DNA of 64,000 nt from positions 1,152,001 through 1,216,000 of the forward strand of contig CAVRAG010000008.1 in NCBI GenBank assembly GCA_963718895.1, given 5' to 3'. The first letter of the stretch is position 1. Each line of letters begins with the position of its first letter. Shown here in pieces: positions 51,024 through 57,817 of the stretch. A model generated the notes under the pieces. It saw nothing but the letters and a program-made list of their open reading frames with translations, made no database searches and had not been told where the DNA came from. Position numbers and translations under genes: made by a program. The DNA is from an uncultured Nitrososphaerota archaeon (GTDB taxonomy: Archaea; Thermoproteota; Nitrososphaeria; Nitrososphaerales; Gagatemarchaeaceae).

Positions 51024-54000
51024 TTAACGGGCGAACTGCCTAGCCTCCTCGTTCAGCCTCCGGCAGCAGTACTCCCTCACGGTGTATTCTCTGATGCCGA
51101 GAGTCTCGGCAGCCTCCCGCTGAGAGACGGTCTTGGGCGAGATTGCCAGGGACGCCAGATAGACCGATCCTGCTGCGACGGTCCTGGGGTTGAAGCCGTT
51201 GGGCTCCGCTGCTGAGGCTACGAGCTCCTTCGCGCGCTCGAAGAGGGTCGTGAAGTACTCCTTCGGGTCTGCTTCTGACTTCCTCAGCCGCTCGGCAATC
51301 CTCTCGCTGGATTGCAGCCTGCCGATGGCGGCCTTCACGAAGTCATCCTTGCTGGGATGGGGGAGGTGCATCCCGGACTCGAGGCCTAACTTCAGCAGGT
51401 CGGACTTGCGGACCCTGTAGCCCGCGTCGGTGTAGGCCTTCAGGACCTCCCTGTGGCTGACGTGCACGACACCTGCTGCCCTGCAGGCGTAGAGCTGAGG
51501 TAAGAGTGCGCTGCCACGCCCTTCAAATCGGGCAGGAAACACGCACCCTCCCTCCCAAACCCGGCGTGATACTTTCGCATCACCGGGCTTTCACTCCTAC
51601 GTCTTCCGTCCTCTTCTTGTGCATTAGATGGATTGATTTCAGCTACCTTTCTTGAGGCAGCTTACTGTGGCATTTCGCGCACAATGTCTGAAGATTTTCG
51701 ACTCGGTGCACGACCTGCGGGTCGAAGACCATTCCTCTGGGGACACGTTCTATGTGGTGCGCCTGTAGTTTCTCCCGACTGCTGCACTGGGTACACTTCC
51801 ATCCATCCCTCTCAAACGTCAGAAGGCGGTTGGAGAGATAGGTTTCATCATTGTACTCGGGCGCAACCGGGTGGGCGTTGGGCGCATCTATGATTGGGTC
51901 GTCGGTTTTCTCTGAAATGCTGGTTGCCGTGTGGCTCTGGTTGGTGTACGGATTCCTGATTGACCTGTATTTCCAGATGAGTTTATGGTTCATGGAGGTG
52001 TGCATGCTCGTATTGGAGGTCATCCTGAAGAGTTCAACCTTGATGTCGCCCCTCTGAATGACCACCCTTCCGTTCGTGCACACGGTTGACAGGTACTTCC
52101 CGACACTGATGTGGTACTTCCTTCGGTACCACTGCCGAAACAAGCGTTCGGCGAGGAAGTCTCCTGTCCTGAATTGTTGGTAGGCATTTACTGCTTTGTA
52201 GTAGTTGGCCCATCCCTTCAAGACCCTGTTCATCGCCGCAACCTTCGTCGGGGGGTCATCGCTTATCGCAGCTGTCCCTAACATCGCTTGCAGCTTGTTC
52301 TTGAGACGGGAAAGATTTCGCTGTGTTGGTCGTATTCTGACACAACTGTAGTATCCCATGTTCACCCGCCGGATGTGGAAACCGAGGAAGTCGAATCCAT
52401 TCTCCAGCGGAATGAGTCTTGTCTTCTCTGTTGACAGGTTCAGATTGAGTCTCTCCTTAAAGAAGCTCCGTATGCTGTTCATGACTGCGGTGGCTCCCGC
52501 TTGGGTGCCTTTCACACTCAAGATGAAGTCATCCGCATACCTGAACAGTACACAACTGGCCTGTTCCGTTTTCTGTTGTTGTACTCTCTGCGTCCTTGTG
52601 AGCTTGCCCCAGTATTCATCCCAGAACTGGTCAAACTCGTTGAGGTAGATGTTGGCTAGCAATGGCGAAAGGACACCACCTTGCGGGGTTCCTTTCCGGA
52701 CTTGTACCTGAATGCCATCTTCGATGACGGGTGCCTTAAGGAACTGACGAATCAGCCACAGGATGCTAGTGTCTGCTATCCTTTTCTTGACAGCTCGCAT
52801 TAGTATCTCATGGTCGATGTTGTCAAAGCACCCTTCGATGTCTCCTTCTATGACCCATTCGTATCTTCGGACGTTGTCCCCGTACCGATACATCGGCAAT
52901 ACACACTCCAACGTGCTTCTCTCAGGTCGGAAGCCATTCGAGTTTGGCAGGAAGTCGGCCTCGAAGATTGGTTCAAGAACCATCTTCAAGACCATCTGCA
53001 CGACCCGATCTCTTATCGTTGGGATGCCTATTGGGCGCCTCCCTCCGTTAGCCTTCGGAATGTACTTCCTAAGCACCGGAGAGGGGTGATATGTTCGCTG
53101 TTTCAGCTCTGTACGCAGTTCTTCGACAAATCTGGCCCTAGCAGACGGCTCGTGCAGGTCTGCCCCGCACACTCCGTCCACACCTGAGGTCTTCGCGCCA
53201 GCGTTGTCTAGAACCGCTTCGAGAGCCGAGTTGAGCCACTCTCTTTTCCAGAGTAGCGAATGGAGGTTGTAGAATTGCTTGCTTGGTCGTAGTGTTGCGA
53301 TTCTTGCGAGTCCACTCTGGATGCAGAGAATGGCTCTGCCTTCCCTCTTGCGGGGGACTACCGATGATTGCTCATCGGTTTTGTTGTTTGAGCCCATTCT
53401 CTCACCTCCTTTTGTGTTTCGTGGACTGAATCCATCCTTTGCACAGTTCGGACTTCGGATTTCGGACTAGAGTCCTTCCCCACAGGTCGGTAATTGGCCG
53501 ACATTCAGGGTACTATGACTCCTCGGAGCCAACCCAGTCAAATCAGACGCAGCCGTCCTATCCACTCGCCCTTTATCGACGAGAGGCAGACCGGGTTGGG
53601 TCTCACGTTCTGTAAGGAGCACGTCTGTAGACGGATTTAGGCACCCACCAGTATTCGGGAAGATTCCGCCACGCCGGGCGGTTCTCGCCTTCCTAAAGGA
53701 AGGGGATTTGCCATTCCTCTCACTGCACAGGAATGGTAACCCTCCATGTCGTGCGCCCTTCTATCCTAGTGTCTTCGCACGACCGGCCTACTATCTGTTG
53801 TGGGTTCCTTATCGTTGCCATGTCCGTCCTTAGGTCGCCGTCTCGGGAACCTAGGCTGTTCCCTTATCGGCTGTCTATGTCTGGGGCTAGCCCCATGCTG
53901 GGCTCTGCTCAGAGCCCAACATGCCAGACGACTTTCACCTTCGGGAGTCCAAACCTTACGGCTGTGGACGCCCAGCCCTACCTACTGTAGTGTGGGATGA

Positions 54001-57000: not shown

Positions 57001-57817
57001 GAATGACTCTGCCTTCGTCCTTGCGGACTACTGGACTCAGCGATTGCTCACCGAGCTTATTGTTTAAGTCCATTCTCTCACCTCCTTTTTTGTGTTTCGT
57101 GGACTGAATCCATCCTTTGCACAGTTCGGACTTCGGATTTCGGGCTAGAGTCCTTCCCCGCAGGTCGGTAATTAGCCGACGTTCAGGGTACTATGACTCC
57201 TCGGAGCCAACCCGGTCAAATCGGACGCAGCTGTCCTATCCACTCGCCCTTTATCGACGAGAGGCAGACCGAATTGGGTCTCACGTTCTGCAGGGAGCAC
57301 ATCTACAGACAGGTTTAGGCACCCACCAGTGACCGAGAGAGCCCCGGCACGTCGGCTGGTTCTCGCCTTCCTGCGGAAGGGGATTTGCCACACTATGGTC
57401 TCGTAAAGTGTGGTGGTTCTCTATACCATGCGCGCCTCGTCCTATCCTAGCGTCTTCGCATGGCGCAGGGACATTCTGTTGTGGGTTCCTTATCGTTGCC
57501 TTGCCTGTCCTCAGGTCGCCGCCTCGAATGCCTAGGCTGCACTCTTTGCGGCTGTCTATGTCTGGGGCTAGCCCCATGCCGGACTCTGCTCAGAGTCCAA
57601 CACGCCAGACGACTTTCACCTTCGGGAGTCCTGACCTCACGGTCGAGGACGCCCAGCCCTACCAGCTGCTTTCGCAGCCCTTCGGGCATTGCTCCTTACA
57701 GCGGGGAAGTGGCTTATTCAGCTACTTCCTTTCGTGACGCGCGAGGCCTTCCCTGCACTCCGGGCACCTGCCCAGGATGCTGTACTCCTCGTACGCGGCC
57801 AGCTCTCGTCCGTCCAC
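51024..57817 (-). CDS. TFB-like gene copy 2, three exons (57817-57743, 54806-54429, 51494-51024)
   Basis: Exons align to 14027-15004; junctions EGL|VYA and YSL|LYA are in frame; exon 2 is 378 nt; start approximate. Confidence 0.85.
51643..53397 (-). CDS. ltrA: Group II intron RT/maturase with HNH endonuclease
   Basis: GIPTIRDRVVQ, GTPQGGVLSPLLANIYL, RYADD and CxxC...HH...N...CxxCH; GGAGGTGA SD. Confidence 0.95.
   Translation of the reverse strand: MGSNNKTDEQSSVVPRKREGRAILCIQSGLARIATLRPSKQFYNLHSLLWKREWLNSALEAVLDNAGAKTSGVDGVCGADLHEPSARARFVEELRTELKQRTYHPSPVLRKYIPKANGGRRPIGIPTIRDRVVQMVLKMVLEPIFEADFLPNSNGFRPERSTLECVLPMYRYGDNVRRYEWVIEGDIEGCFDNIDHEILMRAVKKRIADTSILWLIRQFLKAPVIEDGIQVQVRKGTPQGGVLSPLLANIYLNEFDQFWDEYWGKLTRTQRVQQQKTEQASCVLFRYADDFILSVKGTQAGATAVMNSIRSFFKERLNLNLSTEKTRLIPLENGFDFLGFHIRRVNMGYYSCVRIRPTQRNLSRLKNKLQAMLGTAAISDDPPTKVAAMNRVLKGWANYYKAVNAYQQFRTGDFLAERLFRQWYRRKYHISVGKYLSTVCTNGRVVIQRGDIKVELFRMTSNTSMHTSMNHKLIWKYRSIRNPYTNQSHTATSISEKTDDPIIDAPNAHPVAPEYNDETYLSNRLLTFERDGWKCTQCSSREKLQAHHIERVPRGMVFDPQVVHRVENLQTLCAKCHSKLPQER
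54017..54269 (-). CDS. Two-TM passenger protein inside intron A (frameshift near 54125)
   Basis: MTKQTILGLALILG..., shifted frame TLNYIGIAVLVSAVTIAFASNKW...TN*; motif at 54303-54325. Confidence 0.65.
55049..55342 (+). CDS. Two-TM passenger protein, antisense inside intron B domain IV
   Basis: MKWIQLAPVVGFVLTL...YGYPLPWL...LAVDFLVW; segment absent from intron A. Confidence 0.7.
   Translation: MKWIQLAPVVGFVLTLASLLYVWNPYTWGVTELSYGYPLPWLTSFASVAGTHWAMNVVGLAVDFLVWLAISAAGIFLLSLRSARELLFQRSAWSRLF
55319..57073 (-). CDS. ltrA: Group II intron RT/maturase with HNH endonuclease
   Basis: 584 aa, same motifs as the intron A protein. Confidence 0.95.
   Translation of the reverse strand: MDLNNKLGEQSLSPVVRKDEGRVILHIQSGLAISATRRKDKQFHNLHSLLWRREWLQTALEAVLDNAGAKTSGVDGVCGADLHEPSARARFVEELRTELKQRTYHPSPVLRKYIPKANGKERPIGIPTIRDRVVQMVLKMVLEPIFEADFLPNSNGFRPERSTLECVLPMYRYGNSHNLYQWVIEGDIEGCFDNIDHGILMEAVQKRIADNSILWLIRRFLKAPVIDEGIRTKTRKGTPQGGVLSPLLANIYLNKFDQFWYENWGRLTADQRKKRQRHGQANCVLFRYADDFILSARGTEEGVNAVMDSIRSFFKSKLRLDLSTDKTRVVRLEEGFNFLGFHIQRVHLDYGECVRIRPTQRNLYRLRNKLQSMLGPTASRDEPHMKIAALNRVLRGWANYYTSVNSYQQFRTGDFLAERLFCKWYCRKYKVSVRKFLAQVLSNGKVVVQRRGVKAELFRMASSTSTHTIRNHELLWRYRSIRNPYISQDHKATGIPEENDDPIIDAPNIQPLAPAYDGEIYSSNRLLAFERDGWRCTRCGSREQLQAHHVEPVPKGIFDPEVVHRIANLQTLCAKCHLKQPRPS

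Follow-up and report, generated by a model that had tools for sequence, protein, structure and literature searches.

Two related group II introns interrupt a single TFB-like gene on the minus strand of the DNA considered here, a 64,000-nucleotide (nt) stretch (hereafter the window) from the 3.13-Mb, 11-contig assembly of a Nitrososphaerota archaeon. Both introns begin with GCGCG and end with CAG, and each encodes a protein with reverse transcriptase (RT), maturase and endonuclease domains. The termini GUGYG...AY hold for the great majority of group II introns, in which the gamma-gamma' pair joins a base of the junction between domains II and III (J2/3) to the last intron base (PMC4424553), and the AY consensus is repeated elsewhere (PMC3753933, PMC10012718). 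We consider it likely that the window introns are retromobile and that their gamma-gamma' pair has been inverted with its Watson-Crick character kept, the gamma base being C and the last base G, so that they end in YAG instead of AY.

In the mechanism that we propose, two related retromobile introns would reside in one TFB-like gene, each served by its own RT-maturase-endonuclease. The 5' exon would be bound by exon-binding sites 1 and 2 (EBS1 and EBS2), while the base immediately 5' of EBS1 would pair with the 3' exon at its first position (delta-delta', the IIA type). The kept gamma-gamma' pair, turned round, would then place the 3' splice site in the active site, with gamma C and a last base G in the subclade of the window introns and G and C in the sister subclade; the introns of the former would accordingly end in YAG.

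Boundaries of both introns

The interrupted gene consists of three exons (Table 1). When joined, they form an open frame of 323 amino acids (aa), which aligns without gaps to an uninterrupted paralogue 36 kb away and is identical to it at 289 of 316 residues. The blastn segments between 49648-60444 and its diverged duplicate 12680-17659 end at 51494, 54430, 54806 and 57742, the intron ends, and the empty site B of the paralogue reads GGCCTC/GTCTAC, the same as the spliced form. Judged by the paralogue alone, the junctions can slide by one base, +1 for intron B and -1 for intron A, and GCGCG...CAG is the single register that fits both. The paralogue alone is not quite decisive, because a -1 register would preserve the protein too.

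We therefore turn to eight copies at eight sites, namely the two window introns, L169, L172, L010, L177, L170 and L171 (3' end only), the non-window copies coming from the same-family genomes G401, G404, G407 (twice), G432 and L010/G431. The 5' end is GCGCGUCACGAAA in all seven copies that have one, and the 3' end is YAG in all eight (CAG in seven, UAG in L169). Flanking sequences of the copies are unrelated, the bases before the intron being G, C, C, G, T, A and T and those after it C, G, C, A, C, G, G and C. Every column of a 13-intron alignment was also scanned against the exon bases. Exon positions -1 to -6 are best matched by columns 403-408, and for the base following CAG the neighbouring column 402 gives the most Watson-Crick pairs. 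Adjacent guide bases thus read exon positions -1 and +1, and the junction is therefore fixed independently of the host gene. The termini GCGCG...CAG and their single common register, both put forward in the preliminary description, are upheld by the base-level comparison with the paralogue, and the eight-site copies and the exon pairing agree with them.

It is very improbable that splicing takes place at a nearby canonical AY, for example at UAC six bases downstream, with CAG as a boundary of the DNA insertion only. Both 3' exons do read S-UCUAC-GC, with AC at +5/+6, and the shift would keep the frame. However, it would remove two residues that are present in the paralogue (VY, LY) and would oppose a terminal C to the gamma C, and the other six copies have unrelated 3' exons. 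In addition, the delta-paired exon +1 base directly follows CAG, and intron-less homologues set the CAG junction of the more distant relative L091, as described below. Retrohoming inserts the excised RNA, so that the insertion has the same ends as the RNA.

The 5' end GCGCG, which keeps four of the five positions of the GUGYG consensus, is present in all 14 members of the wider clade that have a 5' end. Among these are sister introns with proteins 53-62% identical to those of the window, found in a Bathyarchaeia metagenome-assembled genome (MAG; L007) and at metagenome loci (L087-L090 and L093), which start with GCGCGUCACG and end with ...CUUACUCUAC. Because these AY-ending introns share GCGCG, a 5' GC does not go together with an AG end in particular, and the coupling of the two that had been suggested is withdrawn.

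Table 1. Positions within the window of the TFB-like exons, the two introns with their parts, and the intron-less paralogue.
Feature	Positions	Strand	Description
TFB-like exon 1	57743..57865	-	First half of the Zn ribbon, ends ...CPECREGL; from translation and gap-free paralogue alignment
Intron B	54807..57742	-	Group II, 2936 nt, 5'-GCGCG...CCUCAG-3'
Intron B EBS2 UCCCUGC	57465..57471	-	Pairs with exon 1 positions -14..-8 (GCAGGGA)
Intron B delta and EBS1	57397..57403	-	Delta C 57403, pairs with exon 2 +1 G; EBS1 GAGACC 57397-57402
Intron B J2/3 (CGA)	57201..57203	-	Gamma base C at 57203
Intron B protein	55319..57073	-	584 aa, RT, maturase X, HNH
Intron B insertion, domain IV	54946..55318	-	About 370 nt, 3' of the protein reading frame; absent from intron A
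Intron B domains V/VI	54807..54904	-	Domain V 54869-54902; bulged branch A 54813; terminal AG 54808-54807
TFB-like exon 2	54429..54806	-	126 codons, starts VYAGEERTELTCSFCG; 97.6% identity to paralogue
Intron A	51495..54428	-	Group II, 2934 nt, 5'-GCGCG...CCUCAG-3'
Intron A insertion, domain I hairpin loop	53989..54354	-	About 365 nt; intron B has a GAAA-type tetraloop hairpin there
Intron A EBS2 AGUAGGCC	53785..53792	-	Pairs with exon 2 positions -13..-6 (GGCCUACU)
Intron A delta and EBS1	53720..53726	-	Delta G 53726, pairs with exon 3 +1 C; EBS1 CAGUGA 53720-53725, pairs with UCGCUG
Intron A J2/3 (CGA)	53523..53525	-	Gamma base C at 53525
Intron A protein	51643..53397	-	584 aa, RT, maturase X, HNH
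Intron A domains V/VI	51495..51592	-	Domain V 51557-51590; branch A 51501; terminal AG 51496-51495
TFB-like exon 3	51024..51494	-	Cyclin-fold part, starts LYACRAAG
Intron-less TFB-like paralogue	14027..15187	-	Empty sites 14924/14923 (site B) and 14546/14545 (site A)

J2/3 and the last intron base across the lineage

The base of domain II (D2), J2/3 and domain III (D3) were aligned in 12 introns, and the named helices were tested with 500 shuffles. In the D2/D3 helices 97.8% of the cells are paired, with 13 of the 27 pairs changed on both sides; none of the 500 shuffles attained these values, and slid registers were 25-58% paired. J2/3 consists of exactly the three bases that separate the final pair of D2 from the initial pair of D3. 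They read CGA in 7/7 copies of the clade ending in CAG, GCA in 6/6 members of the clade ending in UAC, and CGU in L091. In each of the 14 introns of the clade with both bases known, the first of these three can pair with the terminal one, giving seven C:G pairs, six G:C pairs and the C:G pair of L091. The proposal that J2/3 reads CGA in the window introns and that gamma-gamma' is inverted is backed by this covariation with the sister introns (GCA...UAC) and by L091 (CGU...CAG). By contrast, RGA as the local ancestral form of J2/3 does not stand, since the sister clade has GCA.

L091 served as a test of this complementarity. Its 3' end can be placed in two ways that both preserve the host frame. 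With the end assigned by Rfam (...CUCUUC), the gamma C would be opposed by another C. Positions 4860-4907 of L091, behind a normal domain VI, form a 48-nt perfect hairpin without a bulged A, ending in CCAG. In three homologues of the host protein that lack the intron (218 aa, 82-84% identical), the sequence across the site is ...RSIV/LKLLRELKDKY, in agreement with the CAG junction and with no space for 16 extra codons; L091 therefore ends in CAG. At this junction the delta base U faces an exon +1 A. To judge from the intron-less host homologues, L091 would thus splice behind the 48-nt hairpin.

To polarize the change of the pair, we used a quick maximum-likelihood protein tree (LG+G4), with only the Shimodaira-Hasegawa-like approximate likelihood ratio test (SH-aLRT) as support, of 34 rows chosen by hand from about 180 loci; open reading frames (ORFs) of 330 residues or fewer, including the broken frame of L010, were excluded. 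The window proteins fall in a clade of 15 rows (SH-aLRT 100), in agreement with the distinct archaeal lineage that the preliminary description had expected. Within it L091 branches off first; the other rows make up two sister groups, the CAG clade (7 rows, SH-aLRT 100) and the AY clade (7 rows, 95). Outgroups end in AY, and where their 5' ends can be recognized (L094, L096, L099 and L035) these are GUGCG. With this arrangement of basal L091, the sister CAG and AY clades and the AY-ending outgroups, the gamma base and the last base were swapped at least two times, by two gains or else by a gain and a reversal, and both partners changed together each time.

Several points weigh against the inverted pair as we read it. 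We assume, as in solved introns, that gamma stands first among the three J2/3 bases. Between the clades there are further differences, in the middle base of J2/3 (G versus C) and in the first pair of domain V (A-U versus G-C), and the change is thus possibly wider than one pair. The covariation represents about two evolutionary events, not many, and the tree is a quick one with self-chosen rows and SH-aLRT support only. The differences in J2/3 and domain V and the small number of events would fit another explanation, in which something else reads the terminal G, for instance the protein or non-canonical contact with the 5' end, and the J2/3 difference (CGA versus GCA) concerns the triple helix with domain V; B.c.I4 mutants have been found to splice without a canonical gamma-gamma' pair (PMC1865049). 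We regard this explanation as quite unlikely. Complementarity between the first base of J2/3 and the terminal base holds in 14/14 introns, and in L091, where the third J2/3 base differs (CGU), C with G is still kept. The anatomy of the introns, the boundaries at which they are inserted and the covariation are observed directly, whereas we infer that gamma-gamma' forms in these introns and that they splice and move with these ends.

The rarity of the AG end can be seen from a covariance model of domains V and VI, built from 18 of these sequences and run on 160 fetched loci. It gave 153 matches, 129 of them distinct; as aligned, 93 of these terminate in AC, 7 in AU and one in AG; this single AG-ending match (1/129) is L010, a member of the CAG clade. 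The remaining 28 end otherwise, some of them being truncated matches or alignments one base short. Proteins P0001-P0032 are 69-98% identical to the window protein. Identity to it is 50% or more for 89 of the best 120 protein clusters listed, after which it drops to about 41%; the named clusters are Nitrososphaerales or Nitrososphaerota MAGs, with one labelled Cyanobacteria. The lineage was found in Nitrososphaerota, in Bathyarchaeia and on metagenome contigs, and the clade gave no match in 400 other species-representative genomes sampled across the phylum. In the archaeon's own family, 5 of 96 other genomes were matched at E <= 1e-100, four of which carry CAG-clade introns, and this search of 96 genomes gave no copies beyond those known; the broken copy of G431 scores under that threshold.

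Two related loci show unusual arrangements. Positions 1-75 of L092 hold the 3' end of one intron (...CCUGUAU) abutting the coding sequence of another intron's protein, so that the introns are nested. The 2239-nt contig of L094 carries the same domains V and VI at 32-127 and at 2143-2238, and its 3' end runs into a GUGCG 5' end; L094 is a tandem or circular form.

Exon recognition and relation to known introns

EBS1 pairs with exon positions -1 to -6 in 10, 12, 13, 9, 11 and 13 of the 13 aligned introns, respectively, and EBS2 with about -8 to -14. The delta base (column 402, the best of 735 columns) faces exon +1 in 10 Watson-Crick pairs of the G-C, C-G and U-A types, in two G·U pairs and in one mismatch. 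Delta covariation with exon +1, described beforehand as G:C in intron A and C:G in intron B, is borne out by these 13 introns. Since the guide sequences are specific for each site, they imply movement with these ends. The pairing has exceptions that speak against such a reading: EBS1 of intron B pairs with GGCCUC at five of six positions, with one A·C mismatch; L169 has C·C at delta and +1; and in L177 and L170, which are identical copies, EBS1 pairs at only four of six positions.

Another column, 450, is equally complementary to delta (10 Watson-Crick and two G·U pairs), and it forms one side of a hypervariable, covarying pair of a hairpin. The other side, column 459, can pair with exon +1 in no more than 8 of 13 introns, and of the four introns that discriminate between delta:+1 and an internal partner of delta, three favour delta:+1 and one the internal partner. 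An internal partner would correspond to the IIB arrangement, in which EBS3 of a coordination loop pairs with +1 and delta with an internal delta'. The hairpin itself (columns 447-462, about 57340-57355 in intron B) has five covarying base pairs and is located 3' of the arm with EBS1. All four Watson-Crick forms occur at its fourth pair, which equals the exon +1:delta pair in 6 of 11 distinct introns, a likeness that could be due to chance or to a link with 3' exon reading. A further similarity concerns the target: TCTACGC stands at exon positions +2 to +8 of both window introns (54799-54805 and 51487-51493) and not in the other six copies. It may reflect target recognition by the intron protein, the RNA guide reading +1 only, or chance.

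Delta-delta' pairing is the IIA mode of 3' exon recognition (PMC4424553). In searches against proteins of known structure, the intron protein scores 195 bits with T.el4h, 187.5 with LtrA and 175 with GsI-IIC, which does not separate the ML and CL classes; we take T.el4h to be a CL protein and LtrA an ML protein. Its best plasmid-borne relative is cyanobacterial (39% identity), and the Rfam models of domains I to IV gave a sub-threshold match only (RF01998, 18.4 bits). In domain VI of both introns the bulged A is followed by four base pairs of helix and two free bases, the geometry of the RF00029 consensus; the spacing of the branch A at -7, common to this consensus and to AY-ending relatives, is therefore uninformative on class and does not serve as the IIA mark for which it had been taken. 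Thus, of the IIA-like character first ascribed to the introns, the delta-delta' pairing stands, while the branch position lends nothing to it and the protein, with about equal scores for CL and ML, points to neither class. On the delta-delta' feature, the lineage would have IIA-type reading of the 3' exon.

With canonical bacterial and organellar group II introns, the window introns share the six domains, domains V and VI with the bulged A, EBS1 and EBS2, the domain IV RT-maturase(-endonuclease) and the complementarity of the J2/3 base to the last base. They differ in their second base, which throughout the clade is C and not U, and in the last base G with gamma C, found in the window subclade and in L091. 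Group IIA introns such as Ll.LtrB, with an ML protein, have the same delta-delta' reading of +1 and an endonuclease domain in the protein; in contrast to Ll.LtrB, the host here is archaeal and the protein is no nearer to LtrA than to the CL protein.

Archaeal introns have been assigned to classes C, D, CL1A and CL1B, mostly in Methanomicrobia, and proteins of about 600 aa bearing an endonuclease to classes B, ML, CL1A, CL1B and CL2A (PMC8919778). The introns of Methanosarcina and Thermoplasmatota described there also reside in archaea, often in mobile DNA. However, they belong to different phyla, and the proteins reported here form a separate clade, whose identity to all other sequences fetched does not exceed about 48%; the GCGCG start, the YAG end and the IIA-type delta set the window introns further apart. 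A 2022 genome survey recorded group II introns from Halobacterota and Thermoplasmatota but not from the majority of the other archaeal phyla. Maturases have been noted in TACK archaea, in a treatment confined to maturases (bioRxiv 10.1101/2024.12.10.627823). The 48-nt hairpin of L091 resembles the 3' extension behind domain VI of B.c.I4, which is IIB2-like and ends in U (PMC1865049); the window introns have no such likeness. In the literature searched, leaving aside supplements, most subscription journals and the curated intron database, we found neither an AG-ending lineage nor an account of these introns.

It is possible, although doubtful, that the introns make up an uncatalogued archaeal class, present in Nitrososphaerota and Bathyarchaeia and distinguished by an endonuclease, IIA-type exon pairing, a change of U2 to C and a gamma-gamma' pair inverted either two times or a single time followed by a reversal. 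Apart from this reading, the introns add an endonuclease-bearing lineage with IIA-type exon pairing to both groups.

Spliceosomal GU-AG and GC-AG introns share with the window introns the terminal YAG, the GC start and an upstream bulged branch A. In contrast to them, the terminal G here has a Watson-Crick partner in J2/3; a pair of this kind is not reported for the spliceosome (PMC4424553). The likeness in YAG is probably convergence, which the preliminary description had allowed for and which we keep as the simplest reading.

The rule that any Watson-Crick gamma-gamma' pair should work is an old one. What these introns would offer is a natural lineage with a 3' G that moves between sites and in which the known J2/3 partner has changed along. 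It would amount to a natural compensatory experiment on the choice of 3' splice site, with sister introns of both states in existence. If the introns do make up an uncatalogued class, these natural mobile GC...YAG introns would be a living test bed for the passage from an AY to an AG 3' splice site, within the archaeal group nearest to the eukaryotic stem.

Intron activity, host locus and insertions

Introns A and B share 79% identity across their aligned core, and the assembly contains no other full copies. Both of their proteins are intact, with YADD and HNH motifs; they pass TIGR04416 with 350.7 and 351.6 bits (cut-off 300) and also match RVT_1, GIIM and HNH. RF00029 (domains V and VI) matches the minus strand at 51494-51592 with 57.3 bits and at 54807-54904 with 57.0 bits (gathering score 40). 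Domain V has the AGC triad and a 2-nt bulge and domain VI the bulged A, with a fold z-score of -7.5; the penultimate A and the first G of the consensus are kept in both introns. Our view of the introns as probably active is indirect, based on intact proteins and catalytic RNA, on compensatory pairing and on guides re-matched at each site.

Three RNA runs, with small shares (0.05-0.07), were searched as Logan contigs, where stretches lacking cover are uninformative. One 268-nt contig of RNA library X20 joins 54805 to 57742, skipping exactly 2936 nt. The intron-bearing allele differs from the paralogue at 57793, 57761, 54786, 54729 and 54645 and by indels near 57805/57824. The contig shares with the paralogue an A>G difference at 54645 and a one-base gap near 57805, and it is only about 95% like the window. 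On account of these two marks and this likeness it more likely comes from an intron-less gene, and we count it neither for nor against splicing. A second X20 contig spans the unspliced 5' junction (57531-57767). In run X19 a contig joins 53468, at domains III/IV of intron A, to 57125 in intron B, with 17 other letters between; this is probably a related intron with a different linker or an assembly chimera.

The RNA contigs searched gave no evidence of splicing, and two further findings count against activity: site B of the paralogue, 78/80 bases identical around the junction (including the whole of the intron-binding sites IBS2 and IBS1 and +1), is yet empty, and the protein frame of L010 is broken, with a longest ORF of 247 aa and, in G431, stop codons. 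All of these would agree with introns that are dead relics in an interrupted pseudogene, covered for by the intact paralogue 36 kb off, with the odd termini a product of decay. The insertion of about 370 nt carried by each window intron points the same way. We nevertheless consider such relics unlikely. Both 584-aa proteins retain their catalytic motifs; D5, D6, the D2 base and the D3 pairing are held by compensatory changes; and the spliced frame is open over 323 codons. Copies from six genomes at eight sites have identical termini with guides matched at each site, and the change of the last base is matched in J2/3, a match that would not arise by decay.

The host gene is best described as a divergent TFB-like gene, because its zinc ribbon scores under the threshold. 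Represented by the paralogue, it reaches 26.3 bits with PF00382 (Pfam TFIIB; cut-off 23.6), 19.1 with Zn_Ribbon_TF, below the cut-off of 29, and 36.4 with NF001658 (cut-off 384). The region 49648-60444 as a whole is a diverged duplicate of 12680-17659. The duplicate, of about 5 kb, holds an ArdC-N-like gene, small ORFs, the TFB-like gene and a 543-aa ORF. Its flanks are about 78% identical versus 97.6% for exon 2, and exon 1 is close too; the high exon identity near the intron sites may reflect strong constraint there or gene conversion. At 40303-40443 a tRNA gene containing an intron of 71 nt directly adjoins a tyrosine-integrase gene (40496-41692; Phage_integrase, 31.8 bits). Given this neighbourhood, the intron-bearing locus is probably part of an integrated element.

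Large insertions occur in several introns of the clade, at about 150-800 in L177, 2190-2900 in L010 and 680-1370 in L172. The domain I hairpin loop that holds the insertion of intron A (about 365 nt) also carries those of L010 and L177, which are longer; that of L172, of about 630 nt, is located in domain II. The intron A insertion contains a 95-aa ORF in sense orientation (53982-54269, minus strand) with a transmembrane-like character, and the intron B insertion an antisense ORF (54818-55342, plus strand) with transmembrane-like stretches; neither had a Pfam match. In L177 the insert ORF, of 210 aa, shares with that of intron A the sense strand and a hydrophobic start, and its hydrophobic stretch is followed by a Ser/Thr-rich run. 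The ORFs of intron A and L177 look like cargo genes carried in the ribozyme. The intron A insert is 66% like G000:C8:626184-626447. On another contig, a 60-nt fragment at G000:C4:246132-246191 is 88% identical to domain I of intron A and may be the remnant of another copy.

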